Below are positions 3,832-57,703 of a stretch of 64,000 nt of DNA, piece by piece (positions within the stretch are counted from its first letter, which is position 1; each line of letters opens with the position of its first letter). The stretch lies in the IMG/VR virus record IMGVR_UViG_3300045988_136773. The stretch is one strand, 5' to 3'. The notes beneath the pieces were generated by a model. That model did not search any database, had not been told where the DNA came from, and was given only the letters and a program-made list of their open reading frames with translations. The position numbers and the translations under genes are program-made. This DNA comes from a virus.

Positions 3832-4287
3832 ATGATAAGAAACATTGAAGATTGGGTAGAAACAACAGATGGAATTTACAAGTATGAAATAGCAGATACA
3901 TTGTACTATGAGTTGCACATATATTCTAGATACATGAAAGATGACATTCAAGATGCACTTGCATCGTTATACTTAGTATCGAAGCAGTTTTCTGGTTCTG
4001 TAGACAATATCAAAAAGTTCGAACGAATTGGTTTAAATTTTAACCATTCAGTTCAGGATTGCCTAAATCAAATTAGAATGCCTTTTAGAGAATTTGCTGA
4101 AATCGTATATGAAAACAGATATAGCCACTACAATGACAGTACGCTAGTACCAAAATCTGAAACAATTATTGTCGCATTCGCAAGAATGCCTGATGATATA
4201 CGTGAAAATAAATGGGAAGAGCGAGTAGAACCACTTGCATATGCTTTCGCATACGAATTGAGAAACAAAAGAGTATCAAAATTTTAG
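3832..4287 (+). CDS. hypothetical protein
   Basis: ORF track; ATG overlaps the upstream TGA (gtgacATG). Confidence 0.6.
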   Translation: MIRNIEDWVETTDGIYKYEIADTLYYELHIYSRYMKDDIQDALASLYLVSKQFSGSVDNIKKFERIGLNFNHSVQDCLNQIRMPFREFAEIVYENRYSHYNDSTLVPKSETIIVAFARMPDDIRENKWEERVEPLAYAFAYELRNKRVSKF

Positions 4288-4301
4288 GGAGGTAGATTAA
4301 T

Positions 4302-4994
4302 ATGACAATTCGGCCATACAGAGGGAAATCACTAAATGGTTTCTGGGTAGAAGGAATGTTAGTTTTGAAAGATGAGTATGCACCAAATATACATGCCATA
4401 ATTAGTCAAAAATCATCTTTTGCATATCCAGTTCATGAAGAATCGATAGGGCAATATATAGGATTAACCGATGTAAATGGTACTAATATATATGAAGGTG
4501 ACATTGTAGACATCCTTACTGAAAACGATGAATATGGTGTCGTAGCATATGAGGATGGTGGCTTTGTCGTGAAGGCATCTACATTCGTGGTTGACTTCAT
4601 GTCAAACATCAATGGAAAAGATGTAGAGATTATTGGCAATGTATTTGATAATCCTCAGCTTGTACCATCCGCAGTAGATGAATCTTTATTACGCACTCAA
4701 ATGCCTGAACCACAAAATGGCTGGTTCGGTAAAACGAGTGATAATCAATGGTTTGTTATTATTCGACAGCCAAATTCAGATGAATACCTAATGGTATATG
4801 AGGATGGTGGATATGATGCAGGAACGGTATCTGAGGTATTCGATGAGTCAAAACACGACTTTAATAGATATGGTGAATGCATAGATGGTAATAAGATTGT
4901 TCGACTTATAAATGCTATCAGCTTTGAGCATGCAAAGCATATATACAAAGAGTGCCCAAGTAATTACAAAGATGTTATCTGGCAAAGGAGGTAG
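4302..4994 (+). CDS. YopX-family protein with extra C-terminal domain
   Basis: IGQYIGLTDVNGTNIYEGDIV ... IIGNVFDNPQL, the YopX signature; strong RBS gggagg. Confidence 0.75.
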   Translation: MTIRPYRGKSLNGFWVEGMLVLKDEYAPNIHAIISQKSSFAYPVHEESIGQYIGLTDVNGTNIYEGDIVDILTENDEYGVVAYEDGGFVVKASTFVVDFMSNINGKDVEIIGNVFDNPQLVPSAVDESLLRTQMPEPQNGWFGKTSDNQWFVIIRQPNSDEYLMVYEDGGYDAGTVSEVFDESKHDFNRYGECIDGNKIVRLINAISFEHAKHIYKECPSNYKDVIWQRR

Positions 4995-28728: not shown

Positions 28729-28747
28729 ACTAGCAGAGTAGGTGATT

Positions 28748-29746
28748 ATGATGATCGCAATCAAACAGCAATCTTTAAAAGGTATGACATTCATAGATCT
28801 ATTTGCCGGACTAGGTGGTTTCAGACTGGCATTGGAATCACTGGGGGCAAAGTGTGTTTATTCCAATGAATGGAACAAGGTTGTTCAAAAGGTATATGCC
28901 GAAAATTTTGGAGATACTCCAGAGGGGGACATTACAAAGGTAGATGAAAAAACGATTCCGGAACATGATATTCTATGTGCCGGATTTCCATGTCAGGCTT
29001 TTTCTATCAGCGGCAAACAACGAGGATTCGAAGACAGCCGTGGGACTTTATTTTTCGATGTTGCAAGAATCGTAAAAGAAAAGAAGCCAAAAATCGTTTT
29101 TATGGAAAATGTGAAAAATTTTGCTACCCATGACAAAGGACATACCTTAGAAGTAGTAAAAAGGACTATGGAAGAACTGGGGTACACTTTCTATCAAAAA
29201 GTCCTCAATGCGGTAGACTATGACATTCCGCAAAGACGGGAGAGAATCTATATGGTTTGCTTTCGAAATGATTTGTCTATTAAAAACTTCACATATCCCA
29301 AGCCAATTCCCTTGTCACATCATGTAGAGGATTTTTTATTAAACGATGAGAAACTCGTAGAATCGCTCTATATCAATCGTCCGGATACATATTTTCAAAG
29401 TATAAGCGATGACAAATATAGTAATCAGTCCATTCGACTAGGGATTGTCAACAAAGGTGGTCAAGGTGAACGCATTTACAGCACAAAAGGAATTGCAATT
29501 ACATTATCCGCATACGGCGGCGGCGTTTTTTCTAAAACCGGAGGATATCTGGTTCATGGAAAAACCAGAAAGCTGCACCCTCGTGAATGTGCAAGAATCA
29601 TGGGTTATCCTGACACTTACAAAATTTGCAAAAGTGCGAATCAGGCATATCAACAGTTCGGAAATTCCGTGGTTATTGATGTTTTGCAATTTGTAGCAAT
29701 TGAGATCGGAAAAGCATTAAAATTAACCGCACAACAAGATCAATAA
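28748..29746 (+). CDS. DNA (cytosine-5) methyltransferase
   Basis: FAGLGGF (I), GFPCQAFS (IV), ENV (VI), QRRERIY (VIII), QFGNSV (X). Confidence 0.85.
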   Translation: MMIAIKQQSLKGMTFIDLFAGLGGFRLALESLGAKCVYSNEWNKVVQKVYAENFGDTPEGDITKVDEKTIPEHDILCAGFPCQAFSISGKQRGFEDSRGTLFFDVARIVKEKKPKIVFMENVKNFATHDKGHTLEVVKRTMEELGYTFYQKVLNAVDYDIPQRRERIYMVCFRNDLSIKNFTYPKPIPLSHHVEDFLLNDEKLVESLYINRPDTYFQSISDDKYSNQSIRLGIVNKGGQGERIYSTKGIAITLSAYGGGVFSKTGGYLVHGKTRKLHPRECARIMGYPDTYKICKSANQAYQQFGNSVVIDVLQFVAIEIGKALKLTAQQDQ

Positions 29747-30410: not shown

Positions 30411-30658
30411 AACAGATGTTCTGCGGTATTTGTAGATATCACATCAGGCATGGTAAAAATCTTATGCTTTTACGAATCGATGGTGCTGTTAAACAGATAC
30501 CTGTTTGTAAGAGATGTTGTCAGAACACTATTGAACTAATATCAAAAAAACATAGCATACATAAAATAGAAGTTACGATACCTGGATGTGAGTTTGATAG
30601 TATCAATAAGATACTGGAGGGATATGTATATGACGACATTAGAATGGGCTCAAAATGA
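30407..30658 (+). CDS. small CxxC...CxxCC protein, paralog 2
   Basis: FCGICRY...VCKRCCQN; ATGA overlap with the previous gene. Confidence 0.6.
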   Translation: MKQMFCGICRYHIRHGKNLMLLRIDGAVKQIPVCKRCCQNTIELISKKHSIHKIEVTIPGCEFDSINKILEGYVYDDIRMGSK

Positions 30659-31313
30659 AATTAGACTTACAAAGGCGGCATCTAGTAATGATAATTACTT
30701 TGCATTATGCTGCGACAGTGCTATTAAAGCATTTCAATCACTGATGGATGATGGTCACAGCGGATGTTCCATATCTATAACAATGGATATACTGAATCGT
30801 TTAGCATCAAATAAACCTCTAACACCAATTACAGAAAATGATACATTTAGCAAAACATGCGGATGTCCATATGAGGGTGCAGTGGATTATCAGTGCGACA
30901 GGATGAGCAGTTTGTTCAAAACAGTTCAGTCAGATGGAACTATAAAATATACAGACACTGATAGAATTATTGTATACGATGTTAGTAGTGTAAATCCGAA
31001 CATTGGATTTCATAATGGATTTGTCTCTAGCACCATTCATGAAATGTTTCCGATTGCTCTACCATATACACCTGAGAAATTAAAAGTATACGTTACAGAA
31101 TATCTTACAGATCCGAAAAATGGTGATTTTGATACAATTGGTATGCTCAAAGTTGTGAAGTCGGATGGTATAGAAATTCAAATCAATCGATATTTCAAAG
31201 AAGCTAAGGAAGCCGAATTTACTGAAATCAGTAAAGAAGAGTACGATATACGACGTGACATGGATTACAGACGTATAGTCAAGTGTGCTTATAATGTGCG
31301 TGGTGACAAATGA
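30630..31313 (+). CDS. hypothetical protein
   Basis: ORF-track frame; ATG 30630 lies 8 nt after ggaggg. Confidence 0.55.
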   Translation: MTTLEWAQNEIRLTKAASSNDNYFALCCDSAIKAFQSLMDDGHSGCSISITMDILNRLASNKPLTPITENDTFSKTCGCPYEGAVDYQCDRMSSLFKTVQSDGTIKYTDTDRIIVYDVSSVNPNIGFHNGFVSSTIHEMFPIALPYTPEKLKVYVTEYLTDPKNGDFDTIGMLKVVKSDGIEIQINRYFKEAKEAEFTEISKEEYDIRRDMDYRRIVKCAYNVRGDK

Positions 31314-33234: not shown

Positions 33235-33531
33235 ATGAGAAAATTCAAATCCGCATATGTAAAACTTGCTGCTACATTATTAGCAATCCCTATGTTATTT
33301 ACAGGTTGCACAGCATCGTGTAGCCGAGAATGGACAGATATGAAATCTGATTTTTGTGGTGGTCTTAATCGTACTATCACAGTATACACTGCTGATGGGG
33401 AAGTGATTGCTACATACAGCGGTAAAATCGATATTGATACCAATGATGGTGGTTATGTAAAATTTGATTTAGACGGAAAGCGATACATCTACTACAACTG
33501 TTTTGTAGAATCTATTGCAGACATTGACTAA
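33235..33531 (+). CDS. lipoprotein
   Basis: Signal peptide with lipobox: MRKFKSAYVKLAATLLAIPMLFTGC; RBS aaaggag. Confidence 0.7.
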   Translation: MRKFKSAYVKLAATLLAIPMLFTGCTASCSREWTDMKSDFCGGLNRTITVYTADGEVIATYSGKIDIDTNDGGYVKFDLDGKRYIYYNCFVESIADID

Positions 33532-33547
33532 CAAGAGGAGTATTGAA

Positions 33548-34318
33548 ATGAAAGTAGTGTTATTAGCACATACCCCCACGCCGGAACAGACCGTTGCCGC
33601 TGCGGCACGGCTATGTTATTCTGACACCGATGTAGAGGCTCTGCGGGAGTCCATTTCGCAGGAGCGTGCAGAACAGTTTGTGGAAATGCTGGCGGGATTT
33701 GGTCACGAAAGCCCCGTGGAACATGTGACATTTACATTTGGGATCGAGGGCGTTTCCCGTTCGTTTCTGGCACAGGTGACCCGTCACCGCATTGCTTCGT
33801 TCTCTGTGCAGAGCCAGCGGTATGTGCGGCAGGATCACTTTGTCTTTGTAACACCGCCGGCAATTGCTGCCGAGCCGGAACTGCTGCGGGAATACGAAAA
33901 TGCCATGCAGCAGTCCATTGACAGCTACAACCGGCTGGCGGACGCGTTGGCGGCGAAATATGTGCCGGAATTTCTGGCACAGGGCTGCACCGAAAAGGCA
34001 GCCAGCACCAAGGCGGAGAAAAAGGCGATCGAGGACGCACGGTATGTGCTGCCCAACGCCTGTGAAACCAAAATGATCCTGACCATGAATGTCCGCAGTC
34101 TGCGGAACTTTTTCCGGCTGCGGTGCTGCAATCGGGCACAGTGGGAGATTCGGGAAGTGGCAACGGAAATGCTCCGGCTCTGCTGTGAGGTTTCTCCTGC
34201 CATGTTCCGCACCGCCGGTCCGTCCTGCTACTGCGGCGGCTGTACCGAGGGCAAGATGAGCTGCGGCAAGGCGAAGGAAGTGCGGAAAAAGTTTGAAACT
34301 ATACACAATACTAAATAA
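33548..34318 (+). CDS. thyX: flavin-dependent thymidylate synthase ThyX
   Basis: ThyX signature RHRIASFSVQSQRY. ATG 33548 follows aagaggag. The interior is strikingly GC-rich. Confidence 0.9.
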   Translation: MKVVLLAHTPTPEQTVAAAARLCYSDTDVEALRESISQERAEQFVEMLAGFGHESPVEHVTFTFGIEGVSRSFLAQVTRHRIASFSVQSQRYVRQDHFVFVTPPAIAAEPELLREYENAMQQSIDSYNRLADALAAKYVPEFLAQGCTEKAASTKAEKKAIEDARYVLPNACETKMILTMNVRSLRNFFRLRCCNRAQWEIREVATEMLRLCCEVSPAMFRTAGPSCYCGGCTEGKMSCGKAKEVRKKFETIHNTK

Positions 34319-41832: not shown

Positions 41833-42204
41833 ATGCAGAATGAAAATCAAACAACCAAGGAAATCAATGTATATGATGTTGTTTATACAATCCAGAAGCT
41901 TGGTATTTCATCAAACCTTTTCGGATTTAACTACATTCGATACGCAATCGAACTCATTGCAAAAGATGAATCCTATATGCATTCCATCACAAAACGCCTT
42001 TATCCGGAGATTGCAAGAGCATTTAATTCCACTAGTCAGCGAGTAGAGCGTGCAATTCGTCATGCAATCGATGTGAGTATGTATCGTGTGAATCATGAGT
42101 ATTGGGATATGATATTTGATGGAATTTGTACACTTGATGATGTACGTCCTACAAATTCAGAATTCCTTGCTACACTATACATATACTTAAAGTACAGATG
42201 CTGA
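41833..42204 (+). CDS. receiver-less Spo0A C-terminal (effector/DNA-binding) domain protein
   Basis: [28 protein letters not shown] and [11 protein letters not shown] closely follow B. subtilis Spo0A [28 protein letters not shown] / KPTNSEFIAMV. Confidence 0.85.
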   Translation: [123 protein letters not shown]

Positions 42205-43710: not shown

Positions 43711-44499
43711 TCAAAACTCTCTTTCCATAATCGGCAGAATGCCATCTTCCTTCAACAAATCGTAAATGAACAACCGCCCTTTCTGTGTCCAGTGGGTATG
43801 CGGAACAACATGACCATGACCGTTTGCATCATCATAGTAATATGTCTTAGTTGAAGTCAATCCCATTTCCGCATACTTCTGGTATAACAACCAGATCTTA
43901 CCACCCTGCTTGTACTGCACACCTTTTTCACGAAGTACTTGATTCATGTGGTTTGCAGACCAGCCATAGTCCTTAGCAATTATGGAGATAGGAACCAGAT
44001 CATTGCATTCCAGAACCTTATCGTAGTAGCTTGCCTTGGGCTGCAGTTCTGCAATCTGCTGTGTTTGTACTGCAACTGTCTGTTCCAGCGTATTTGTCTT
44101 TGCACGTTCTTCCTTCAATTCGAGCAGAGCGTTGATCAGCATGTCCGGATCGTTCAGCACATCGTCAATTGCATACATACCGTGCTTACGAATAGCGGGG
44201 AGTACTTCGGATGTTACCCACTTCTTAAACTTCTTGGCATTTGGCATCTTACTTGACAAAACGAGGCTATAAAGACCAGACTCATTGATGATTGTCAAAT
44301 CCTGCATGCCGCCAGGGGTGTCACATTTTGTTACACCCTTGTCATCATCATCGACATGGTCAGAAATTGCCTTTCGTGTGTTGCTATACCCAAGCACTTC
44401 AGCAATATCCTTTGCAATGAACCACGGTTCACCATTCATCTGAACTGTACGAACAGTCGAACCCTCGAATACCCATACTTCTACATTTTCGTTTGTCAT
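43711..44499 (-). CDS. Bro-N / KilAC-domain antirepressor
   Basis: N-terminus FEGSTVRTVQMNGEPWFIAKDIAEVLGY (Bro-N); C-terminal KilAC-like ISIIAKDYGWSANHMNQVLREKGVQY. Confidence 0.8.
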   Translation of the reverse strand: MTNENVEVWVFEGSTVRTVQMNGEPWFIAKDIAEVLGYSNTRKAISDHVDDDDKGVTKCDTPGGMQDLTIINESGLYSLVLSSKMPNAKKFKKWVTSEVLPAIRKHGMYAIDDVLNDPDMLINALLELKEERAKTNTLEQTVAVQTQQIAELQPKASYYDKVLECNDLVPISIIAKDYGWSANHMNQVLREKGVQYKQGGKIWLLYQKYAEMGLTSTKTYYYDDANGHGHVVPHTHWTQKGRLFIYDLLKEDGILPIMEREF

Positions 44500-46811: not shown

Positions 46812-46964
46812 CAACTCTATAACTGATACCTCAACATCAACCTAAGTCATATCTGAAATATTTGTCTTGTAAAATCAATAACGAACAAATTTACGAAAAT
46901 ATATGTCATATTTTGTTGAAATACGCTTCTATTTATGGTATACTATAATGTAGGAGTGATAATT

Positions 46965-47834
46965 ATGACAAAACGAAAATCCAGTTTAGTGCCAGATTAC
47001 ATTGATTTAATCAATCCGACATTTACTGTAATCAAAAATTTAGGCGGAACTGCAACAAACAATCAAATTCATGATGGTGTTGTTGAGCTTTTACGTTTAT
47101 CAAAAGCTGCTGTATCAGAAAAGCATATAAATAAAAATGAAACCGAACTGATCTACAGATTGAGATGGGTAAGAACCGCAATGAAGAAGTCTGGTGTTCT
47201 AATTAATCAAGAGAGATCAATCTGGACCATACTTCCTGGATATAGGATGCTAGATGCTTTTGATCAGGAACAGCTAGATTTCATCATGAAACAGAAACAA
47301 GTAGTAAGTTCTGTTCCTGTCGCAGTTGAACTTAGCAACGTTACAATTAGTGATGTTATCAACAATGACCCAGATGAAACACCATGGGTAACACAGCTGA
47401 GAGATGTTTTAATGGCTATGAATCCATATAGCTTTGAAACGCTCTGCAAGCTTATTTTAGAAAAATGCGGTATCACTGATGTGTCAACAACAAAGAAATC
47501 AAAAGATGGTGGTATTGACGGATACGGCAGATTGAAACTGAATACAATATTTTCGGTAAATATTGCGTTTCAATGCAAACACTATGGTGGAAAAATTAGT
47601 GCACCTGCTATCCGAAATTTTCGTGGAGCAATGTCACCAAATATTGAAATGGGATTATTCATAACAACCTCTGAATTTACACAAGCGGCAATAGATGAAG
47701 CAAATCGAGTAGATCAGAAAATGATACACATCATGGATGGTGAACAAATTATACAGTATCTACTCGACTGCCAAATTGGATGTACGAAACAGGAAGTCTA
47801 TATCATAGACGAAGACTTCTTCAAAAACTTATGA
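46965..47834 (+). CDS. Mrr-like (type IV) restriction endonuclease
   Basis: N-terminal Mrr_N-like winged helix. C-terminal PD-(D/E)xK core DGGIDGYG...AFQCKHY and GLFITTSEFT. Confidence 0.7.
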   Translation: MTKRKSSLVPDYIDLINPTFTVIKNLGGTATNNQIHDGVVELLRLSKAAVSEKHINKNETELIYRLRWVRTAMKKSGVLINQERSIWTILPGYRMLDAFDQEQLDFIMKQKQVVSSVPVAVELSNVTISDVINNDPDETPWVTQLRDVLMAMNPYSFETLCKLILEKCGITDVSTTKKSKDGGIDGYGRLKLNTIFSVNIAFQCKHYGGKISAPAIRNFRGAMSPNIEMGLFITTSEFTQAAIDEANRVDQKMIHIMDGEQIIQYLLDCQIGCTKQEVYIIDEDFFKNL

Positions 47835-49079: not shown

Positions 49080-49352
49080 ATGAATACAGATAATTTGAAA
49101 GCTATCCGGAAAAAGTCCGGAAAGACTCAAAAAGAGGTTGCAGAAGGAATTGGTATTGGTCAAGGCACATACAAAAATTATGAAACTGGTGCAAGAGAAC
49201 CTAATAATGCTACCCTAGTCGCAATCGCAAATTATTTTGATGTAACAACAGACTACTTACTAGGACGAGAACAAACAGCATCTACTGAATCATTAAGGTT
49301 AAGCAAAATCAAGGAACATATCGATGCTATCAATGATATTCTGAATGACTGA
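49080..49352 (+). CDS. XRE-family HTH regulator, module 2
   Basis: IRKKSGKTQKEVAEGIGIGQGTYKNYETGAREPNNATLVAIANYFDVTTDYLLGR. Confidence 0.75.
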   Translation: MNTDNLKAIRKKSGKTQKEVAEGIGIGQGTYKNYETGAREPNNATLVAIANYFDVTTDYLLGREQTASTESLRLSKIKEHIDAINDILND

Positions 49353-49365
49353 GGAGTTGATTCTT

Positions 49366-49818
49366 GTGAAAATTTACATTAGAGGCTTTGCAGAAATGCA
49401 AAGAGAAGTCGAAAGAACACTATCTGCACACACCGGAGAAGTTATAGAGCATATGTTAAAATGCTATCTAATGCCAGATCATCCAGCTGTGAATCACTGG
49501 AAATCTGAAATTGCAAATCAAATTTGTAGTGTTAATAAGTTGAAAAATACTAAAAAGTATCCTACTGCAAATAAGATTTATGCGTGGACATACGAACAAA
49601 ATTGTGCAATACTAACAAATTATACTAAATTTTCTAATTTCGTCCGTGAAATTTGCAATGACTATAGTATTGAGACAATTGAACCAGTAAAGGACATTAT
49701 GGATGACTTCAACAAAATTTGTAAAGAGTATTTTAGCTGGCTTGCTAATATGCTAAGCACATCTGGAAAAGCCGCTAGCACTGATATATACGATAAATTA
49801 GATGAATTATTTCGATAG
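49366..49818 (+). CDS. DUF29-like helical protein, paralog 1
   Basis: GTG 49366 follows gaggag. ...VIEHMLKCYLMPDHPAVNHWKSEIANQI... resembles the DUF29 pattern HLLK..y.p....W..eI. Confidence 0.45.
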   Translation: MKIYIRGFAEMQREVERTLSAHTGEVIEHMLKCYLMPDHPAVNHWKSEIANQICSVNKLKNTKKYPTANKIYAWTYEQNCAILTNYTKFSNFVREICNDYSIETIEPVKDIMDDFNKICKEYFSWLANMLSTSGKAASTDIYDKLDELFR

Positions 49819-49841: not shown

Positions 49842-50312
49842 ATGAGGATATTTGTAACAGAACGTGCAGATTTGCTACGTGATCTGGAAAGAGAATTATC
49901 GCCTCGTACAGATAAGATAATTGATACAATTATACAGCTATACTTGTTTCCGGAGAATGCTGACGCAAAGAAATGGAAATTTGAAATTGCTCGTAATCTA
50001 AATTCTGTATCTGTGATTAAAAAGAAGTTGCCTACAGCAAAACAACTTTATAAATGGACATATTATAAAAAGTGGGATCTTGTAACAGACATAGCATGGA
50101 TGAGTGTTACCATGCGTGACATAAAATATAAATGTCATGCAAAGGTTACTGAACCAGTTGAAACTGTCTGTAAAGACGTAGATGATATTTGTTGTAAATA
50201 TTTTCACTGGCTTACTCATGAGCTAAGTACCTACGGGTGTGTTGCAAACGCTCAAATTGATGAAAAATTGGATGAGCTTCTTAGAGATAAAGGACGGTTT
50301 AGTAATATGTGA
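49842..50312 (+). CDS. DUF29-like helical protein, paralog 2
   Basis: Aligns along its full length with 49366..49818 (MRIFVTERADLLRDLERELS / KIYIRGFAEMQREVERTLS; ...KLDELLR / KLDELFR). Confidence 0.45.
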   Translation: MRIFVTERADLLRDLERELSPRTDKIIDTIIQLYLFPENADAKKWKFEIARNLNSVSVIKKKLPTAKQLYKWTYYKKWDLVTDIAWMSVTMRDIKYKCHAKVTEPVETVCKDVDDICCKYFHWLTHELSTYGCVANAQIDEKLDELLRDKGRFSNM

Positions 50313-50317
50313 GATTT

Positions 50318-50842
50318 TTACAGGGTGTTGACTATCATGAAAATCCGTAAAAGAAAACGATATATCAAAAGCAGTAGTAACGTAAACACATTGGAGTTTG
50401 AGATTGTTGTACTTGCAGATGTACTCGTAGACGTTTCTACAGATAATTCGTCATCTACTTTGTGATTGATGGAACTTACAATTATAAGCGATACAAGAAT
50501 ACTGATTACAACTATGACAGCTGTTATGGTAATTCCGAGAATCAGTTTTTTGTTATGTATATGATTTGAATGACATTCTGGTGAATCTAGCTTTGCACTT
50601 GATACTACATCTGCGTTTGTATGTTCACTCTCTAGGTTTTGTTGCGGTTCTTGCACTTTTGTTCCACAAACAGGACAAATACCTGTTTGCATATCAATAG
50701 GGTTCCCACAATTCCAGCACAGCCTGCTGTCATTCGATTTTACGTCTGTTGAATGTACTGCATCTTGATCTATACAAAATCCACATAGATAACAATCTTT
50801 TGCATTATCATCAAGTTCTGTACCACAATTCGGGCATAGCAT
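50318..50842 (-). CDS. double-zinc-ribbon membrane protein
   Basis: CPNCG...CYLCG and CWNCG...CPVCG, then TM helix LILGITITAVIVVISILVSLIIV and a Ser/Thr-rich tail. Confidence 0.65.
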   Translation of the reverse strand: MLCPNCGTELDDNAKDCYLCGFCIDQDAVHSTDVKSNDSRLCWNCGNPIDMQTGICPVCGTKVQEPQQNLESEHTNADVVSSAKLDSPECHSNHIHNKKLILGITITAVIVVISILVSLIIVSSINHKVDDELSVETSTSTSASTTISNSNVFTLLLLLIYRFLLRIFMIVNTL

Positions 50843-50857
50843 AGTAATTCACCTCTG

Positions 50858-52108
50858 TCAGTTTTTCGTTTTTGGTAGCTTTACATTATGATATATTATA
50901 AGTCCTACTATTGCAGTTAAACAGAATGATGCTAATATTAAGAAAAATCCAATTCCGAGTATAGATTTCAATTTCACACCATCTTCAATGATGAATGTTT
51001 GAAATAGATGTTTTAAATCTATAAACGTGACAACTTCTCCGATGATGCCTATTATAGGAGCTCCTACAGCAATGTACTTTTTGTATTTACCTAATGGTTT
51101 TATATAATTCATGATGATGATTAGTATTGGAACTAAAAATATGAGTATGCTGAAAATCGACTTGTTATCCCCTAATTTAAGTTCTTTTATTCCAACTAAA
51201 GTACTAAATACACTTGCAGTAATTCTATTTCCAGTATCTTCTGCGGACTTAGCATAAAAACTTGCAAACGGAAAAAATGTAAATACTAGAGTTATTATTG
51301 AACATATCGTCATAATGTGATTTCTGACAAATTTGTTTTTTATCGGGATATTTTCAAAATTTTCATCATGTGGTTGTGCGGCAGCAGCAGATTTTAATGT
51401 ATTAACTGCTTTTGATGCTATGTGACTTATGGATTGTGACGCTTCAGATCCTGATACTACATACTGATTTGAATTTGATTCCGCAGGCTTAGATACTGGA
51501 TTTGATGCAACTTGTATATGATTAGATTTATTTTGCATCTTTGCAATTTCCGTATCACGATATAACACATCAACGCTATTTGGGCAGCTGTCGATTAACA
51601 ATTGCATAAATTCAAGGTTTCCAATGAAATATACTTCGTAAATATCTGTACCAATGTAATCTGTAAGCTCTTGAAAAATTCCCTTCCACTGCAAATCCCT
51701 GATTTGAATTGAGTTTATCCATTCGTCAATTGATCGATTTTGAATTCTAGTCGTATCGAATGCATGTCCATTTATAGTAATTTTAGTTACAAATGGATTT
51801 TCGCTATACAGAATTGTTACTGTGTTATTTGAACTTATAAGATTTACAGGTGAATCTTTCAGTGCATATTTCACCATTTCAAATGATGCGGCATCACTTT
51901 CAAACAACAGTGTATAATCAGGTTTTCCGGTAAATGACCTTAATTCTTCATATAGGCCTTTCCATTTTACTCCCTTTGAACTCAATGGAAATAGCCATTG
52001 TTCTATCGGGAAATCTCTGATACATTTTGTATCAAGTGTTTTATCATCATAAGATATTTTCAGTGTATCTTTTTCTCTATCGTACACTATCTTTACAATA
52101 GGTTTCAT
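50858..52108 (-). CDS. membrane protein with a tandem-duplicated cytoplasmic domain and about 4 C-terminal TM helices
   Basis: Two roughly 95-aa repeats (...IEQWLFPLSSKGVKWKGLYEELRSFTG... / ...IDEWINSIQIRDLQWKGIFQELTDYIG...). Hydrophobic C-terminal third. Confidence 0.6.
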   Translation of the reverse strand: MKPIVKIVYDREKDTLKISYDDKTLDTKCIRDFPIEQWLFPLSSKGVKWKGLYEELRSFTGKPDYTLLFESDAASFEMVKYALKDSPVNLISSNNTVTILYSENPFVTKITINGHAFDTTRIQNRSIDEWINSIQIRDLQWKGIFQELTDYIGTDIYEVYFIGNLEFMQLLIDSCPNSVDVLYRDTEIAKMQNKSNHIQVASNPVSKPAESNSNQYVVSGSEASQSISHIASKAVNTLKSAAAAQPHDENFENIPIKNKFVRNHIMTICSIITLVFTFFPFASFYAKSAEDTGNRITASVFSTLVGIKELKLGDNKSIFSILIFLVPILIIIMNYIKPLGKYKKYIAVGAPIIGIIGEVVTFIDLKHLFQTFIIEDGVKLKSILGIGFFLILASFCLTAIVGLIIYHNVKLPKTKN

Positions 52109-52121
52109 AGTTTTGTCACCT

Positions 52122-53117
52122 CTATACAGTAAATGTCTTTGCGATTTTATTCTGAATATCCATAGAAAACATAGGAATCTGTATATTCAACAGTTCGTCT
52201 AAATCAAGTTTTGCAATAGTTACTCCAGATTTGCAATTGTTCAGTTCATACTGTCCACATTCGCTTTCTAAAAATGCCTTTACATAATATGGATTTACCT
52301 TGTCTGCGTCTAGTTCTAAAACATACATTCTTCCAACAGCGATTACATTTGCATCTTCAAAGTCGGCAATCTGCGTTTTTGATGTATCTCCGAATTTGGG
52401 AATAATCAAACTCTTATTCGGAATTTTATGATTTAGATAAGAATCTGATTCTTTTAGATATTTGAGTGCAGATGTTTTAGCGTTCGAATTGAGATCATTA
52501 GTGCTAAACGCATACATACTTGTTTCAGATTTAGATATTGCATTTTTCAAGTCTGTTGGATTCATCTCAATTCCACAAATCACTTTCTTTGTAATGCTTT
52601 TGAGTGTCACAGGATTTTCAAAGTTCAAGTTGTGATCGAAATAGCGTACAGGATATAACTGATAGTTTAATGATATGATTTCATCTTTGGATACACAGCG
52701 GCTTATATCTGTATTCGATTTGCATGCTGTTGCAATCTTAGAAATATCGTCATCAGACAGAATCTTATGATTTTCGTTTGTATGATAAGCATCTGTAGCA
52801 TCAACCATATACACGCTACCATCAGATTTACCAAGTACGAGCATAGCAATTTGTGCATTTGTTGTATGCAACAAGCCAGGTTTAAGCGATACGACAGCCT
52901 TTAGTCGATTGTTTTCAATCAGATCTTTTCGGACTGTCTGATATGCTTTTCGATCATCAAATACTCCACCGTTCAAAATGAATACAACTGAATTAGTATC
53001 AGCTGTGTTTACTAAATCCGAAATTGTCATGACATCAGTTTGCGTTGATGGCTTTTTAGAAATTGATTCTTCCAATTCCTTCAAAGAATCCGTTAATTTC
53101 AACTTGATTTGTTTCAT
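52122..53117 (-). CDS. catalytic-motif-less N6-MTase C-terminal region fused to one type I S-like target-recognition domain
   Basis: NNRLKAVVSLKPGLLHTTNAQIAMLVLGK...VYMVDATD resembles the post-NPPY part of gamma-class MTases; no AdoMet or NPPY motif seen. C-terminus GVTIAKLDLDELLNIQIPMFSMDIQNKIA resembles the end of an HsdS TRD. Confidence 0.45.
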   Translation of the reverse strand: MKQIKLKLTDSLKELEESISKKPSTQTDVMTISDLVNTADTNSVVFILNGGVFDDRKAYQTVRKDLIENNRLKAVVSLKPGLLHTTNAQIAMLVLGKSDGSVYMVDATDAYHTNENHKILSDDDISKIATACKSNTDISRCVSKDEIISLNYQLYPVRYFDHNLNFENPVTLKSITKKVICGIEMNPTDLKNAISKSETSMYAFSTNDLNSNAKTSALKYLKESDSYLNHKIPNKSLIIPKFGDTSKTQIADFEDANVIAVGRMYVLELDADKVNPYYVKAFLESECGQYELNNCKSGVTIAKLDLDELLNIQIPMFSMDIQNKIAKTFTV

Positions 53118-53260
53118 TTTACGCCCCCCAAATTGGAATAAATAATTTTTACAAATACATTATATCACATTTCACGACATTGTTCTATTTGCAAATTGTA
53201 CAAATTTTAAAGTGTGTACTGTGTGCAATTTGACGAAAATCATATTGATATACGCATCTG

Positions 53261-53773
53261 TCATTTGTTTATTTTACCAAAGATATAGTTTTGAAACTGC
53301 GTATACAAACGAATATCATCATGCTGGACACCGTTCCGCTTATAATTTTGTATACACACTATCTGCTTCTTTGCTGCGGATAATGGAATACTGCATAGTT
53401 TTACAAGCTGATACACATCATCTACGTTGATAGCCGACAAGACTGGAATCGGGGCTAATAGATTTAATCCAAATCGGTATGCTTCTTCATCAGATAGTTG
53501 GATTCCAGTGAATACACGACCTATTTCGCATGCTATTAAAAGCCTTTGATTTTCGATTGAAGTAGAATCATCTATTAATATACACATCTGTCCGTCAATT
53601 TTAATCAACCCACCAATGATATTTATACGATCTTGTCGTTTTGTTATATCACTCAGTTTTATAATCTTCACTTGAAACACTTTGCAAATTTTTCGAAGTT
53701 TAACAGGCAATGCTGTAATATTGCATTGAATTAAGCATGCTGTACTTTGTTCTATCATATTATAAGATTTCAT
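53261..53773 (-). CDS. ImmA/IrrE-like protein with degenerate metal site
   Basis: QRLLIACEIGRVF occupies the position of the family ..AHELGH.. motif (His to Cys, His to Arg). Paired with the upstream XRE gene. Confidence 0.5.
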   Translation of the reverse strand: MKSYNMIEQSTACLIQCNITALPVKLRKICKVFQVKIIKLSDITKRQDRINIIGGLIKIDGQMCILIDDSTSIENQRLLIACEIGRVFTGIQLSDEEAYRFGLNLLAPIPVLSAINVDDVYQLVKLCSIPLSAAKKQIVCIQNYKRNGVQHDDIRLYTQFQNYIFGKINK

Positions 53774-53809
53774 AAGACCACCTCATGAGTATTATGCTGT
53801 AATTCCGCA

Positions 53810-54268
53810 TCAATATTCATCTGATGAATCTTTTGCATTTTTCAAAGCATTTATGTCAATCCCAGACTGCTCAGATTCGCCTGTATTGGCTTTTGTTGCG
53901 GTGTGACTATAGTTTTCCTCTTGGTTTCGTAGCATCGATTCTAGGGAATCCTGACGCTTGTTCTCATACATCTGCTCTAGCCTGCCAATTATTTTTATCT
54001 GATCTCGATCTGAGAATTTTCGATATATGTGCAACACTTCAATTTCATTCTCAGATAGATTATTTTCAGATTCTTTTCCGGTCAGAATATATTCTGGAGA
54101 TGTACCTAGAAACTCTGCGATTGCAACAATTTTATCCGAAGATGGATTTGTTCCGTGTGTTTTCCAGTCAGATATAGCGGCAGTTGAGATTCCTGTGTAC
54201 GCAGCTAGTTCTTTCTGCATCTTCCCTTTCGATTTTAGCAGCTGAAAAATTCTTTGTGAAATTGTCAT
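53810..54268 (-). CDS. XRE-family HTH regulator (ImmR-like)
   Basis: LKSKGKMQKELAAYTGISTAAISDWKTHGTNPSSDKIVAIAEFLGTSPEYILTG. Confidence 0.75.
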   Translation of the reverse strand: MTISQRIFQLLKSKGKMQKELAAYTGISTAAISDWKTHGTNPSSDKIVAIAEFLGTSPEYILTGKESENNLSENEIEVLHIYRKFSDRDQIKIIGRLEQMYENKRQDSLESMLRNQEENYSHTATKANTGESEQSGIDINALKNAKDSSDEY

Positions 54269-54316
54269 AATTCTGTCTCCTCTCTTTTAGATATATTCAC
54301 AAATAATTCAGTAATC

Positions 54317-54340
54317 CGTATTTATGTATTGACAAATACG
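54317..54340. promoter_or_regulatory. inverted repeat operator candidate
   Basis: cgtattt-n10-aaatacg, just upstream of the minus-strand XRE gene. Confidence 0.45.
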
Positions 54341-54507
54341 TATATACGAATTACAATATGAATATAGCAAGTGCTATCAGTAAATATGGCTGATACATAT
54401 AGGGGATTTTTACAGTCGAGTTTTGCAGTATTTCTTATAGTATAATTTTTTCTTGATGATTTGTCAATAGTATCATTCTGTGAAACCGATTTCATATAGT
54501 AAAAATA

Positions 54508-54548
54508 TAGCCTGTACTATTCAGAATCAGCTGACTAGTACAGGCTAT
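54508..54548 (-). terminator. terminator after minus-strand gene 54566..54958
   Basis: Perfect 13-bp stem atagcctgtacta/tagtacaggctat; T-rich run on the minus strand. Confidence 0.65.
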
Positions 54549-54565
54549 GTTTAGTTTATGATGAT

Positions 54566-54958
54566 TTAGCTTCGGAAAGCAGATTTCACTCGATTGACAA
54601 TATAGCTTAACGCTTGACGATATGTCTGGAATTTGTGTCCGCTCACAATGATTTCAAGACTATCGTATTGTAGGTCATCTGGGTTCTTTTCATTCAAATC
54701 ACGGTAATTTTCAAGTTCCCTAGCATAGTATTCATTTCTAGCATCAAATCTATCCCAATTTTTATTATTGCCCTTATGCTTTGTCAGACGATGATCTGAA
54801 ATTCTAAGATTTAGAATGATTTTCACATTCAGTGCCTCATACTCATCCTCTTTGCAGAGTACAAAATAACATGACTTACTATTATTTCGGTTACTGAAAT
54901 TCGAACCTTCTAATGTTTCAAAGCCAATAGCTTTTAGATTAATTGCAACAGAATTCAT
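54566..54958 (-). CDS. hypothetical protein (start uncertain)
   Basis: ORF-track frame. The Val-rich N-terminus of the 204-aa ORF is antisense to the Thr-rich linker of the plus-strand gene, so the first internal ATG (54958) is preferred. Confidence 0.45.
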   Translation of the reverse strand: MNSVAINLKAIGFETLEGSNFSNRNNSKSCYFVLCKEDEYEALNVKIILNLRISDHRLTKHKGNNKNWDRFDARNEYYARELENYRDLNEKNPDDLQYDSLEIIVSGHKFQTYRQALSYIVNRVKSAFRS

Positions 54959-55028
54959 GAATGCGTAGTAATGCTCTTCTGCGGTTTCTTCTATTACATC
55001 GTCTAATTCAGAATCTGTCAAATTTGGA

Positions 55029-55865
55029 TTGAATGCTGCCGTAATGCCATCGTTGAATGAGTATATGAGAACAGTTGTGGCAGCTGAATTGACTACCACA
55101 CAGGTAACTACTACAGAAACAACCAGTATGACTACTACAACCGCAGAAACTACTACAACAAATCTCATTGACTTAAACAATTATATTGGTTTTTGGCATA
55201 GCTCTGATTTTGGAAACGCTAGAGAATTAACAATATCAAACGTATCTGACAAAACACTAGTGTTTACTCTATGGTACTATCGTTTAAGCTCAATTGATGA
55301 TGTTTCAGCATTGATAGAAGGTAATATTGCTAAGTTTGATACTGGAGATGTGAGTGGATATTTAAAATTTGATGAATCTGCTATAACTGTTGTAATTGAA
55401 AGATCATCATTGGCTTACATGAATGCAGAACAAGTGAAATTTGATGGTAAACATAATCAATCATGGGAAAATGGATCGCCTGATGATACAACTACTGAGG
55501 CTGACACATTTATGCCGTATGAAATCCAAATCAAAAATCCAAAATTAAACATATATGATAAACCAAGCTATAGTGGCAATATCGTAGGAACAATTACAGA
55601 TCAACAATACTACACCATTGTCGAAGAGTACATGGAACCAGGTCATACTTCAAATTTAGATGTTTGGGGAAAATTGAAATCTGGAATGGGCTGGATAAAC
55701 CTATATGATGCTGAACTAGAGGAAGATTCTAGTTACATGGATGAATCTGCAAATGTTTATTGCCCAAGCTGCGGTTATGGATGGTTTACAACTGGCGTTG
55801 GCGATGATGGGTTCACTTGTCCTAGTTGTGGATTTAAATGGAATCCATATGTATATGGATTTTGA
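55029..55865 (+). CDS. Thr-rich-linker protein with SH3b-like domain and C-terminal zinc ribbon (start uncertain)
   Basis: TTTQVTTTETTSMTTTTAETTTT linker; SH3_3-like YDKPSYSGNIVGTITDQQYYTIVEE...WGKLKSGMGWINLYD; CPSCG...CPSCG. Confidence 0.55.
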   Translation: MNAAVMPSLNEYMRTVVAAELTTTQVTTTETTSMTTTTAETTTTNLIDLNNYIGFWHSSDFGNARELTISNVSDKTLVFTLWYYRLSSIDDVSALIEGNIAKFDTGDVSGYLKFDESAITVVIERSSLAYMNAEQVKFDGKHNQSWENGSPDDTTTEADTFMPYEIQIKNPKLNIYDKPSYSGNIVGTITDQQYYTIVEEYMEPGHTSNLDVWGKLKSGMGWINLYDAELEEDSSYMDESANVYCPSCGYGWFTTGVGDDGFTCPSCGFKWNPYVYGF

Positions 55866-55884: not shown

Positions 55885-55928
55885 AAAAGCCACATATATC
55901 ATGCATTTGTATGATATATGTGGCTTTT
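55885..55928. terminator. bidirectional terminator between convergent genes
   Basis: 18-bp stem aaaagccacatatatcat/atgatatatgtggctttt. Confidence 0.7.
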
Positions 55929-56498: not shown

Positions 56499-57275
56499 TC
56501 ATGCATCAATGTCTACCCCAAGTTCTTGTAAGAGTCGTTTTTCACCAAATGGAGTAATCAGTGTCTGCGTGTACAGCAAATAGCCGGTTTCTGAAAGCCG
56601 ACGCTTTACGACAAACCACCCTGCATTTGCATACTTCTCGGTAGGGTAATTTCTGTGATCTCTGTCACTGTACAGAAATCCGTTTTCTCTCAACCATGCA
56701 AACATGCCCTTACGCCCAAATGTTACGCCGTAGTAATCCCTCAGCTTTCTGGTAAATGTGTAAACGTCAATTCCAATTGGTTCAAACGATTTAGAATTAT
56801 CAGATTTAGCATCATACGTTTTGGCATCTGACTTGAACGTCTTGCACGTTTCCAATTGTCTGGTCATGCTCTGAATCGTATCTGATTGTGATTTGATGAT
56901 GTCGTACAAGTATTTTACATCTGGTGCTGTAGATTCATTTAGGATACGACTTCGAATGTCTGGAAGTACTTCTGACGTAATCCAACGCTTGAATAGAAGT
57001 CTGCTGTACAAGTCACTGAAGTTGACAAGACTGTAGAAGCCACCCTCATTGATGACTGGCACGGGTTGAATCTCGCCACCAATATTACAATTCACCATGC
57101 ACTTATCCCCACAATCTACATGCTTGACCATGGCTTCTCTTGGGTTGCTGTATCCGAGTGCAGTTGCAATATCTTTTGTGAAGAAGTATGGTGTGCTATT
57201 GATGATCAATGTGCGAACTTCTCCGAAATGCTCGTTAGAGTAATGTGTGACTGCATATGTAGTTTCTTTCATCAT
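56499..57275 (-). CDS. Bro-N domain protein with C-terminal antirepressor-like domain
   Basis: FGEVRTLIINSTPYFFTKDIATALGY (Bro-N). Start moved to ATG 57275, after gaaagga. Confidence 0.7.
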   Translation of the reverse strand: MMKETTYAVTHYSNEHFGEVRTLIINSTPYFFTKDIATALGYSNPREAMVKHVDCGDKCMVNCNIGGEIQPVPVINEGGFYSLVNFSDLYSRLLFKRWITSEVLPDIRSRILNESTAPDVKYLYDIIKSQSDTIQSMTRQLETCKTFKSDAKTYDAKSDNSKSFEPIGIDVYTFTRKLRDYYGVTFGRKGMFAWLRENGFLYSDRDHRNYPTEKYANAGWFVVKRRLSETGYLLYTQTLITPFGEKRLLQELGVDIDA

Positions 57276-57330
57276 AATTTTCCTTTCAGATTTTTGACTA
57301 TCAACTTTTGTTTCGCAGTGTGCGTTTTTG

Positions 57331-57349
57331 CTTCTAAAACATATAACGA
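57331..57349 (-). promoter_or_regulatory. phage promoter-like motif, copy 10 (tcgttatatgttttagaag, minus strand)
   Basis: 56 nt upstream of start 57275. Confidence 0.5.
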
Positions 57350-57545
57350 GGGACACCGCAAGAAGTGAAAATATGGTGATGGATTTTCAAGTGTTCAGTA
57401 CAGTTTGCATGATGATTCAAGCATTACGAACACGGGGCATGGAATCTGTTTATGACTTAAACATGATTTAAAATCCATATTATAGTCACAGCGAATATGA
57501 GAATATGCTACTCAAACTATGCAAATTAGACGTTTAGCTAGTCAT

Positions 57546-57703
57546 AAATTTGCAATTTAGCGAGTTTTTCAAGATTTTTGAAAAGTCAAATTGCAAATTT
57601 TCACACCGTTAAATTGAAAATATCGTGCAGAGATTCAGGTATATACTATATTATATAATAATAAAATATAATAAAATATAATAAAACCTCTCTAATAAAA
57701 CCT
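57546..57703. repeat. putative replication origin: 13-bp inverted repeat pair plus AT-rich iterons
   Basis: aaatttgcaattt (57546-58) and aaattgcaaattt (57588-600). About 3 tandem 10-nt units tataataaaa (57656-86). taataaaacc occurs twice. Confidence 0.45.

Follow-up and report, generated by a model that had tools for sequence, protein, structure and literature searches.

A core-less methyltransferase remnant with a target recognition domain, and an envelope gene pair cut by an inversion, in the lysogeny module of a Ruminococcus callidus prophage

The DNA described here is a stretch of 64,000 nucleotides (the window, by which the whole stretch is meant) from the IMG/VR virus record IMGVR_UViG_3300045988_136773. 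It corresponds to prophage DNA of Ruminococcus callidus ATCC 27760, since one of the genes under study (gene 2) is 100% identical to RUMCAL_00399 of that strain; the same genes are carried by one IMG/VR viral contig. The subject of this work is a cassette of three open reading frames (ORFs) on the minus strand: (i) gene 1, at 52122-53117 (331 amino acids, aa); (ii) gene 2, at 50858-52108 (416 aa); and (iii) gene 3, at 50318-50842 (174 aa as called). They are separated by gaps of 13 and 15 bp, and each gap contains a AGAGGTGA-type ribosome-binding site. An earlier reading of the letters by a model (the original prediction) had placed three genes at exactly these positions, and had proposed that they form an exclusion or abortive-infection system in which a DNA reader that has lost its chemistry is joined to two membrane proteins. 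This observation is only partly confirmed, because gene 3 as called is a chimeric stump; the interpretation, too, is supported in part.

Gene 1 consists of a remnant of an N6-adenine methyltransferase (MTase), with motifs V-VIII, and a single target recognition domain (TRD); its ribosome-binding site reads GGGGGG (53124-53129). In Pfam, PF02384 (N6_Mtase) is matched just over positions 157-305 of 311 (E 9e-16), and the TRD matches PF01420 (Methylase_S; E 4e-7). Residues 23-162 are homologous to the motif V-VIII part of MTases and residues 166-331 to TRDs. Among PDB entries, the nearest are HsdM C-termini (3lkd, 7bst; E 1e-20), and Esub1 is matched as well, while PADLOC and NCBIfam give partial type I M/S matches only (in PADLOC, also mad5 S-like). 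The parent family is large: an exhaustive profile search returned 737 representatives at E < 1e-30, nearly all of them of ~545-600 aa and annotated as N-6 DNA methylase. The full-length relatives P0011 and P0012 (576-578 aa) have motif I (DFGLGSAAF), a motif IV-like NYPF and a C-terminal coiled-coil helix. When aligned with such relatives, gene 1 and all its ~330-aa homologues lack motif I (D/E-x-F-x-G-x-G); motif IV, (N/D)PP(Y/F), is absent from gene 1 too, the NYPF of the relatives lying ~27 residues before the point at which gene 1 starts. Gene 1 and all the 329-336-aa homologues begin after motif IV and stop before the C-terminal helix, and the C-terminus of gene 1 comes right after the TRD (…IQNKIAKTFTV). 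The S-adenosylmethionine (SAM)-MTase matches to PF05175 and PF13649 that are present in the full-length relatives are missing from gene 1. In short, what gene 1 shares with HsdM and with the one-TRD N-6 DNA methylases (~545-600 aa; P0011, P0337) is their motif V-VIII part and TRD, but it has no N-terminal helical domain, no motifs I-IV and no C-terminal helix. As motifs I-IV, the SAM-binding and catalytic half, have been lost, gene 1 cannot methylate. The original prediction had described precisely such a post-catalytic MTase part with one TRD and neither AdoMet nor NPPY motifs, and the alignment supports it: N6_Mtase is matched at positions 157-305 only, and motifs I and IV, which an ordinary orphan MTase would carry intact, are both absent.

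Gene 1 is functional rather than a pseudogene and is under purifying selection. Its ratio of nonsynonymous to synonymous substitutions (dN/dS) is 0.23 in comparison with both the 80% and the 52% identical homologues, a value equal to that of the CI repressor, gene 2 and gene 3. The possibility of a decaying pseudogene was rejected, given that the length is kept down to 52% identity, that dN/dS is 0.23 and that the same losses are found in members of ~33% identity. A split methyltransferase was likewise rejected: with residues 1-235 of P0011 and P0012 as tblastn queries, the best E in the 64-kb window was above 4. An in-frame NYLFQFG before the gene 1 ATG was considered as a relic of motif IV and discarded; tblastn does reach into it, but the match is too weak, and NYLFQFG is absent from two related loci (L003 and L024). 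Nor does gene 1 look like a type I HsdS, for it has one TRD with no conserved-region helix after it, and there is no hsdM or hsdR in the locus. Its TRD matches 8vsq, the structure of the half-S protein Esub1, but the C-terminal dimerisation helix of the latter is absent.

The loss of the catalytic core is not peculiar to this prophage. Four short proteins retrieved in the exhaustive search (P0240, P0224, P0243 and P0152) have both defining losses of gene 1; they are 32-41% identical to gene 1 and to each other, and no closer than each is to the full-length P0011. In all, six diverged lineages have both losses in common. In alignment A6 the core decays stepwise: P0152 has a degenerate beta4/motif IV stub (IFVDMPF), P0243 and P0224 have just FIDI/FLDI, and the gene 1 clade has nothing of it, while an N-terminal TPxxI-type helix is kept in all family members. 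The core-less MTase-TRD family is rare (~15 clusters found). Within it, conservation is higher in the TRD half than in the MTase remnant (for instance, 46% vs 25% identity between the window and P0152). In real restriction-modification (R-M) enzymes the pattern is the reverse, the TRD being less conserved than the MTase part. The conservation of the TRD over the remnant, together with the DNA box that travels upstream of these genes (described below), argues for a fixed DNA target and against a sensor of foreign DNA, which is what the original prediction had in mind; its more general view of gene 1 as a reader-type protein without MTase chemistry, and not a pseudogene, agrees with the motif loss and with the dN/dS. 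Gene 1 is, then, most likely a sequence-specific DNA-binding protein that would recognise one fixed target.

The gene 1 promoter lies on the minus strand at 53159-53187, with a -35 element TAGAAC (53187-53182), a 17-nt spacer and the extended -10 element TGATATAAT (TG at 53167-53166, one base, and TATAAT at 53164-53159); transcription is predicted to start near 53152. The -35 element is weak and, in consequence, a consensus promoter scan missed it. TGnTATAAT is identical in the window, L003, L024 and L001, and nearly identical in L045 and L050; the promoter is thus conserved across loci whose proteins are just 34-52% identical, in agreement with the extended -10 promoter and ribosome-binding site that had been predicted for this operon. 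The region of ~110 bp upstream of gene 1 is, in fact, better conserved than the coding sequence: the boxes TGnTATAAT, TTGCAYACAGTAC and TTTGTAYA are kept, with zero indels between them, at that level of protein identity, and TTTGTAYA is conserved in alignments A5 and A7. One element, the upstream box TTGCACACAGTAC (53216-53228, minus strand; about -65 relative to the -10 element), is specific to core-less MTase-TRD genes. It was found in the window, L003, L024, L001, L045 and L050. In 5/7 lineages, the 13-mer TTGCAYACAGWAC is present as a single copy in each locus, always 109-152 nt ahead of the gene 1-type gene, and its spacing to the -10 element is fixed (no indels in five lineages); by our own estimate, ~0.25 chance matches of this 13-mer would be expected over all the fetched loci. 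It was never seen in those fetched gene 2/gene 3 loci that are without gene 1, and it occurs exactly once in the window. Two explanations of the box were discarded: (i) an RNA element, as there was no Rfam match, the consensus fold reached -3.9 kcal/mol and there was no covariation; and (ii) a CI operator, as the 13-mer is unique in the window and the repeats of the CI region differ from it. Closer to the promoter, a palindrome search found the overlapping palindromes TTGTACAA (53196-53203) and ATTTGCAAAT (53187-53196), which together span 53187-53203 on the minus strand (about -35 to -50) and are a candidate operator. A perfect 13-nt inverted pair, AAATTTGCAATTT / AAATTGCAAATTT, with 29 nt between its halves, was observed at 57546-57600, upstream of early/replication genes; it is similar to the ATTTGCAAAT palindrome, and a shared operator is a possibility.

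Members of the core-less family are followed by a partner gene in 6/6 lineages, and the partner is an envelope protein in 5/6; the junctions are often overlapping or of 13-22 bp. In the three lineages with identifiable upstream genes, the family gene follows a pair formed by a helix-turn-helix (HTH)/CI gene and an ImmA/M78 gene. The arrangements are as follows. In the window clade, CI and a 170-aa ImmA-like gene lie upstream, and gene 2 and gene 3 downstream. In L001, several small HTH genes and a 191-aa gene precede the family gene, and a lipoprotein with an LVGC lipobox and a Thr-rich spacer follows; its start overlaps the stop of the gene 1 homologue and its C-terminal Cys4 motif matches the C-terminus of gene 3. 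In L049, HTH genes, Peptidase_M78, a 144-aa gene and GIY-YIG come first, and then, on the downstream side, a signal-anchored Thr-rich protein of 411 aa, with the same C-terminal domain as the L001 lipoprotein and gene 3, and a protein with a zinc ribbon, two transmembrane (TM) helices and a coiled coil. Homologous 2TM-coiled-coil proteins lie downstream in L046 (after a DUF4062 gene and a 108-aa gene on the upstream side) and in L050 (where a 152-aa CI-like gene and an M78-like gene lie upstream). Finally, in L045, with HTH, Mrr and a 118-aa gene on the opposite strand upstream, the family gene is followed by a 40-aa ORF and a 384-aa zinc-ribbon protein with no TM segment. Gene 1 relatives are thus also paired with other envelope proteins where gene 2 is absent. 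The partner families recur across 35-40% identity: the 2TM-coiled-coil protein in L046, L049 and L050, and the Cys4 ectodomain in the window, L001 and L049. The 2TM-coiled-coil partners, L049_411, L045_384 and the orphan proteins X222/X236 (see below) had no informative assignment in Pfam, PADLOC or PHROGs, and a search of IMG/VR for more loci of the family gave one R. callidus-type contig only. As for the shared Cys4 ectodomain, the motif CPxCGYxWFTTGVGxxGFTCPxCG is common to surface proteins that are otherwise different (53-76% identity over 37-53 aa). It is found at the gene 3 C-terminus (55701-55865), in L001 (5206-5364), in L049 (7228-7338) and in L011 (9299-9409), and from its sequence it is predicted to be a zinc-ribbon-like Cys4 knot outside the cell.

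Gene 2 is composed of a cytoplasmic domain of ~92 aa present twice, a disordered linker and a domain of four TM segments with a small extracellular beta-sheet (hhalign, topology prediction and AlphaFold). The duplication has an hhalign probability of 99.6% (E 3.5e-24), so that the tandem domain and the approximately four TM helices of the original prediction were both recovered. In the AlphaFold model, the N-terminal domain (predicted local distance difference test score, pLDDT, 90.7) contains two beta-beta-beta-alpha-beta-alpha-beta-alpha units, and its fold matches are weak: actin-like/ASKHA and RNase-H-like proteins, with 3hrg and AlfA at the top (TM-score 0.24-0.31). Its two tandem units recall the two RNase-H-like halves of ASKHA/actin-like proteins (BT_3980, 3hrg; AlfA), and the modelled membrane part, with four helices and a small extracellular beta-sheet, has a weak likeness to claudins and TARPs. 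However, these scores are weak (E ~1e-3, TM-score 0.2-0.5), the gene 2 domain has ~190 aa vs at least 250 aa, and the resemblance to claudins, a matter of models, may be convergent. The invariant residues of gene 2 include W49, G51, E55, Y101, E103, P105, N113, G114, R125, E129 and W130; by inspection, no DxG-type phosphate-binding loops were seen among the invariant columns. Gene 2 had no functional match in Pfam, PADLOC, PHROGs or NCBIfam.

The called gene 3 product contains a double zinc ribbon (PF12773, PF13240), and its residues 95-129 form a TM segment, so both genes 2 and 3 encode membrane proteins, as had been proposed. The zinc ribbons and TM helix that were predicted for gene 3 are there; its status as an intact gene did not hold, as just ~146 codons are native and a 28-residue tail was added by an inversion (see below). 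The reconstructed protein (409 aa) begins with zinc ribbons on the cytoplasmic side, crosses the membrane in one TM helix and continues as a Thr-rich stalk, a beta-rich and SH3b-like ectodomain and a C-terminal Cys4. In PHROGs, the ectodomain is similar to the C-terminal portion of phage amidases (phrog_1794; E 1.2e-9), and this match and the SH3b-like pattern suggest wall binding; among the window ORFs there is no prophage endolysin with this ectodomain.

In a set of 18 genome loci and several metagenome loci, almost all of those in which the sequence runs far enough past gene 2 have a gene 3-type gene after it; proteins of this type start with one or more zinc ribbons, continue with a single TM helix and a Thr-rich stalk, and end in an ectodomain that varies. 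The pair, tightly spaced, occurs in Ruminococcus, Porcipelethomonas, Dorea, Roseburia, Lachnospiraceae and Oscillospiraceae. Gene 2 homologues number more than 155 vs 14 for gene 1, and one homologue alone was listed in 220 blocks of the collection. In the loci inspected, the gene upstream of gene 2 is always 2-16 bp away and its identity varies: gene 1 (in the R. callidus phage clade only), an orphan 222-aa protein (X222), Mor or an EndoIII/OGG-like protein. Most pairs are without gene 1, and genes 2 and 3 make up an envelope module of their own, which is widespread on the mobile elements of Clostridia. The co-occurrence of the three genes that the original prediction called for was found in part: the family gene is linked to a partner in six lineages, but the three do not form an obligate unit. 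Some relatives carry a zinc ribbon joined directly to the gene 2 domain in one protein; the one whose context was examined, P0083, has no separate gene 3 called downstream. Since such fusions are a Rosetta-stone argument, and since both the gene 2 domain and the gene 3 ribbons are cytoplasmic in the predicted topology, the two would work together on that face of the membrane. Within serine-recombinase elements (L011-L013, L018-L020, L026-L029 and L036) the pair lies in a conserved cluster with the orphan 222/236-aa protein (upstream or downstream), a DSP-phosphatase-like protein and a small resolvase of ~195 aa, whose identity from locus to locus is 77-96%.

The window carries an inversion of 4,669 bp (50405-55073) relative to the ancestral arrangement, and its junctions share just the 4-nt microhomology TGTT/AACA. 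The first indication is that window gene 3 matches just the first part of a 406-aa protein of L003, whose C-terminal motif is found in the window in a plus-strand ORF (55029-55865); by blastn, 50405-54668 of the window is inverted relative to L003. In-silico re-inversion of 50405-55073 restores a 409-aa gene 3 as well as a 191-aa gene, which is 50% identical to an L001 gene of equal length and is intact in L024. By alignment and reconstruction, the following pieces can be distinguished: (i) the native 5' part of gene 3 (50405-50842, minus strand; ~146 codons), with two zinc ribbons, the TM helix and the start of the Thr/Ser-rich stalk; (ii) an out-of-context hydrophobic tail of 28 codons on this stump (50318-50404, minus strand), antisense to the beginning of the 191-aa gene (ATG at 50337, plus strand); (iii) the orphaned 3' part of gene 3 (55074-55865, plus strand, inside the ORF 55029-55865), with the Thr-rich stalk, the beta-rich domain, the SH3b-like domain and the C-terminal Cys4; and (iv) the 3' part of the 191-aa gene (54566-55073, minus strand; 168 codons), the other 23 codons being at 50337-50404 on the plus strand. 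A 21-bp inverted repeat, 95% complementary (55885-55928), comes directly after the gene 3 stop in the un-inverted order and is likely the bidirectional terminator of the ancestral gene 1-2-3 operon. The 174-aa gene 3 call, the 278-aa ORF at 55029-55865 and a 204-aa ORF at 54566-55180 are, in this way, artefacts of one rearrangement.

The un-inverted order exists in nature. It is seen in L003 and in the IMG/VR contig L024, where the ORFs are intact and gene 3 is identical to the reconstruction in 408/409 residues; an intact cassette is present in the IMG/VR contig UViG_3300045988_122658. The inverted state, with the exact 174-aa product, recurs in many gut metagenomes, the contigs being listed in 40 blocks of the collection. 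An assembly artefact was rejected on the grounds of this same product and gene order in many independent gut metagenomes, and such recurrence indicates that the inversion is real, of single origin and stably inherited. A programmed, phase-variable inversion was not supported, as the junctions share 4 nt with no flanking inverted repeats and 6/6 of the window-type contigs examined are inverted. The inversion leaves the gene 3 ectodomain orphaned without an anchor and detaches the ancestral terminator; the envelope module is probably inactive or altered in this genome. A natural knockout comparison is thereby on offer, between the R. callidus ATCC 27760 lineage, with gene 3 broken, and the IMG/VR contig, with gene 3 intact. 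The un-inverted contig also differs from the window elsewhere, which again does not fit a programmed switch. In L024/L025, identity to the window is 100% for genes 2 and 3, 98% for the 191-aa gene, 91% for gene 1, 86% for CI and 57% for the 170-aa ImmA-like gene; this mosaic points to recent recombination inside the lysogeny module.

The cassette is part of a longer block of CI, ImmA-like gene and genes 1-3. The block is headed by a CI-type repressor of 152 aa (53810-54268, minus strand; PF07022 and PF01381, phrog_8 and phrog_4), followed by its partner, an ImmA/M78-like protein of 170 aa (53261-53773, minus strand; phrog_1914) whose HExxH motif is degenerate (CEIGR). The latter is 35% identical to L050_M78, which matches the metallo-protease family phrog_87, and 23% identical to the L049 Peptidase_M78. 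The wider surroundings are those of the lysogeny and early region of a temperate phage, with the CI-type repressor, the ImmA-like gene, Bro/ANT antirepressors, an Mrr-type nuclease and a DnaB-type replication module, so that the placement of the genes in an immunity/moron region was correct. When the window was compared by blastn with deposited phages, no similar phage was found.

No known system accounts for the cassette. With PADLOC-DB v2, the co-located genes gave no component set of a single system, and genes 2 and 3 and all the partner proteins gave nothing significant; the statements of the original prediction that no known defence system is matched, and that no nuclease, ATPase or known defence effector is present at the locus, agree with these results. 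Likewise, Pfam, NCBIfam, PHROGs, PADLOC and the literature found hold no description of the core-less MTase-TRD family, the cis box, the gene 2 family or their pairing. Partial resemblances can be found in several places. Esub1 of Streptococcus pyogenes (SpyM3_0890, PDB 8VSQ) is also a TRD detached from an active MTase or nuclease (E 2.7e-12 over positions 175-328 of the gene 1 profile), and this stand-alone half-S TRD protein has been proposed to bind DNA like a transcription factor (PMC11754733); however, it has ~200 aa, a C-terminal dimerisation helix and no MTase remnant, and it is a host gene uncoupled to envelope genes. With regard to the genomic slot, the site after the repressor is the classic one for exclusion genes in Gram-positive temperate phages (PMC3952083), and the slot and the general logic of accessory or exclusion genes in prophage lysogeny modules are already known. 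In the Streptococcus thermophilus phage TP-J34, the order is CI, metalloproteinase and ltp, the latter is expressed from the prophage, and Ltp consists of a lipid anchor, a serine-rich spacer and an exclusion domain (PMC3952083). The order found here is CI, ImmA-like gene, (gene 1), gene 2 and gene 3, that is, the same slot of the lysogeny module after CI and a gene with a metalloproteinase motif. Gene 3 resembles Ltp because of this position and because of its build, with a membrane anchor, a Thr-rich stalk and an ectodomain. But gene 3 is TM-anchored, with cytoplasmic zinc ribbons in place of a lipid, its 4-TM partner (gene 2) is obligate, and its length is 409 aa vs 142 aa. Finally, Kiwa couples a membrane tetramer, KwaA, to a DNA-binding protein, KwaB, which acts without cutting (PMC11785009), and Zorya couples the ZorAB envelope complex to ZorC/D (PMC11946911). 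They share with the cassette the genetic coupling of a membrane component to a soluble DNA-binding protein; they differ in that the setting here is a Gram-positive prophage, in that the membrane module is mostly without the DNA binder and in that the coupling here is putative. Genes 1-3 had no matches to the Kiwa and Zorya models (PADLOC, Pfam), and one noise-level ZorA match (E 0.027) belongs to an unrelated 157-aa ORF.

The explanation that we prefer, and hold tentatively, is that of a lysogeny-module cassette in which a domesticated DNA binder with a fixed target, acting as regulator or organiser, accompanies an envelope exclusion module similar to Ltp, damaged in this genome. The cassette would be the accessory end of the lysogeny module of a Clostridial prophage, with CI, the ImmA-like gene and then a separate promoter for genes 1-3. 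Gene 1 comes from a small, old family of domesticated N6-adenine MTase/TRD proteins that lost their catalytic half and coiled-coil helix; it would bind a fixed target, the preferred candidate being the conserved box in its own promoter, and in this manner would regulate or organise the cassette. Gene 2 would consist of a claudin-like 4-TM base that carries, in the cytoplasm, a duplicated pseudo-domain of RNase-H-like (actin-fold-like) type, and this pseudo-domain would contact the zinc ribbons of gene 3. The two proteins would most likely stand at the envelope of the lysogen and keep out the DNA of superinfecting phages or mobile elements, an exclusion function that we infer by analogy with Ltp; here, a one-off inversion of 4.67 kb has cut gene 3 and the 191-aa gene. 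Several observations weigh against this proposal. The three proteins have no homology to exclusion proteins, and in Pfam, PADLOC, PHROGs and NCBIfam gene 3 gets generic zinc-ribbon matches only. A Pfam scan of full-length gene 3 and of the L001 lipoprotein (L001_226) gave no match to the Ltp family, and in PHROGs the latter was just a generic 'lipoprotein' (E 4e-4). The fold matches of gene 2 are, as said, weak (TM-score 0.2-0.5). With 331 aa, including a 140-aa MTase remnant that selection has maintained, gene 1 is bigger than one would expect of a simple regulator. Two lineages of the family, L046 and L049, lack the upstream box and, as there is a single copy of it in the window, no more than autoregulation is implied. 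Lastly, lysogeny modules are a hot spot for membrane morons and, hence, adjacency alone may overstate the functional link between gene 1 and the envelope.

The same coupling of a family gene to an envelope gene can also be read in the manner of Kiwa and Zorya, which we consider unlikely. The gene 2/gene 3 module would sense disturbance of the wall or membrane at the entry site and recruit or release gene 1, which would bind the incoming DNA uncut and block its replication or transcription. By extension, the core-less MTase-TRD proteins could be, with the same low likelihood, the DNA-binding arm of an undescribed immunity class of gut-Clostridia prophages that, by sequence-specific binding, stops the invader without methylating or cutting it; its envelope module, spanning wall and membrane and of the gene 2/gene 3, 2TM-coiled-coil or Cys4-lipoprotein type, would detect or occupy the point where phages enter, a Kiwa/Zorya-like logic assembled from R-M parts. 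The presence of a partner gene after the family gene in every one of the six lineages (coding for an envelope protein in five), the overlapping or 13-22 bp junctions and the recurrence of the same partner families across 35-40% identity fit this proposal, as does the fact that, where gene 1 is missing, the slot upstream of gene 2 is often taken by another DNA-binding fold (EndoIII/OGG-like, Mor); Kiwa (PMC11785009) and Zorya (PMC11946911) are precedents of a membrane sensor with a DNA-binding effector. Yet none of the proteins is homologous to KwaA/KwaB or ZorA-D, the gene 2/gene 3 pair is mostly found where gene 1 is missing, and the TRD as the more conserved half, next to a fixed cis box, suggests a fixed self target over diverse invader DNA. 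The conserved TRD also argues against abortive infection, possible but not favoured and, in our opinion, improbable, in which gene 1 would sense specific foreign DNA and activate genes 2 and 3 as membrane-damaging effectors. The tight three-gene operon in a lysogeny module, a gene 1 without chemistry of its own, the multi-TM partners and a weak, non-significant likeness to 4TM/2TM effectors in PADLOC (E ~0.05) and to a holin PHROG (E 0.003) would be in accordance with it. But those effector-like matches are at noise level, the large, variable, wall-binding ectodomains of gene 3-type proteins would be superfluous in a pore-forming effector, genes 2 and 3 are widespread without gene 1 and gene 1 relatives exist without gene 2. 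Moreover, the lineage in which gene 3 is broken is widely distributed and has kept genes 1 and 2 intact, with no sign of a toxin needing control.

Those ectodomains would be at home in a lysogenic conversion unrelated to defence, to which we give a similarly small chance: genes 2 and 3 would remodel or decorate the surface (adhesion, wall homeostasis, signalling) and gene 1 would regulate cargo or host genes. YARHG, SH3b-like and other surface domains sit on the Thr-rich stalks of gene 3-type proteins, some gene 2/gene 3 loci lie beside BspA-type leucine-rich-repeat surface proteins or wall hydrolases, one homologue with the zinc ribbon fused to gene 2 is in a chromosomal context that does not look mobile, and a conserved cis box suits a regulator. 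Most loci, however, are on prophages or serine-recombinase elements and adjoin repressors, the position that is typical of exclusion genes in temperate phages of Gram-positive bacteria (PMC3952083). Least probable of all, and very unlikely in our view, is that gene 1, with no part played by genes 2 and 3, targets host R-M and serves as an orphan specificity-type subunit or dominant-negative decoy that alters or poisons the specificity of type I or single-chain MTase-TRD enzymes. It is true that gene 1 keeps exactly those MTase parts that pack against the TRD, being homologous to HsdM C-termini and to the TRDs of S subunits, that the full-length relative P0011 has a complete type I R-M system and a phage-type repressor as neighbours, and that the element carries anti-defence cargo (a Tad3 homologue and two C5 methylases). 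Against it, S subunits bind M subunits through conserved coiled-coil helices, and gene 1 has none; besides, its TRD is conserved and not diversifying, and the coupling to envelope genes and the private cis box would be left unexplained.

If the gene 1 proteins do bind DNA without chemistry, they would be a clear exaptation of R-M parts (a TRD and half an MTase) as a pure DNA reader in temperate phages. For its part, the gene 2/gene 3 pair is common on the mobile elements of abundant human-gut Clostridia (Ruminococcus, Dorea, Roseburia), unannotated and in a classic exclusion-gene slot; its function, once worked out, would add a missing piece to the picture of host protection by gut prophages.

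Other genes of the window deserve mention. A large serine recombinase (23584-25341, minus strand; Resolvase, Recombinase and Zn_ribbon_recom) is likely the integrase of the element. It is followed by a C5 cytosine DNA methylase of 945 aa (25747-28584, minus strand), with an intein inside (Hint_2/Intein_splicing and a Hom_end homing endonuclease) and an extra zinc ribbon, which has a weak likeness to the C-terminal Cys4 motif of gene 3 (tblastn E 4e-5). The anti-defence cargo comprises a second, intact C5 DNA methylase (28742-29746, plus strand) and a homologue of Tad3, the inhibitor of type I Thoeris (30588-31313, plus strand; PF25185, E 2e-24). Further on, there are a ThyX thymidylate synthase (33515-34318, plus strand), a Spo0A_C-like DNA-binding protein (41833-42204, plus strand) and a Bro-N/ANT antirepressor (43711-44499, minus strand). 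The Bro-N/ANT gene of L003 can be aligned with a 285-aa gene of the window (56499-57356, minus strand). A restriction endonuclease of the Mrr type, that of type IV systems (46935-47834, plus strand; Mrr_N and Mrr_cat, PDC-S02/mREase_IV in PADLOC), was observed at a distance of a few kb from the cassette; an Mrr 45% identical to it lies at the equivalent place (3411-4322) in L045, beside the distant gene 1 relative of that locus. Finally, next to gene 3, two tandem paralogues of 157 and 156 aa (49345-49818 and 49842-50312, plus strand), 37% identical and with a weak DUF29-like match, are represented by one copy in related loci.

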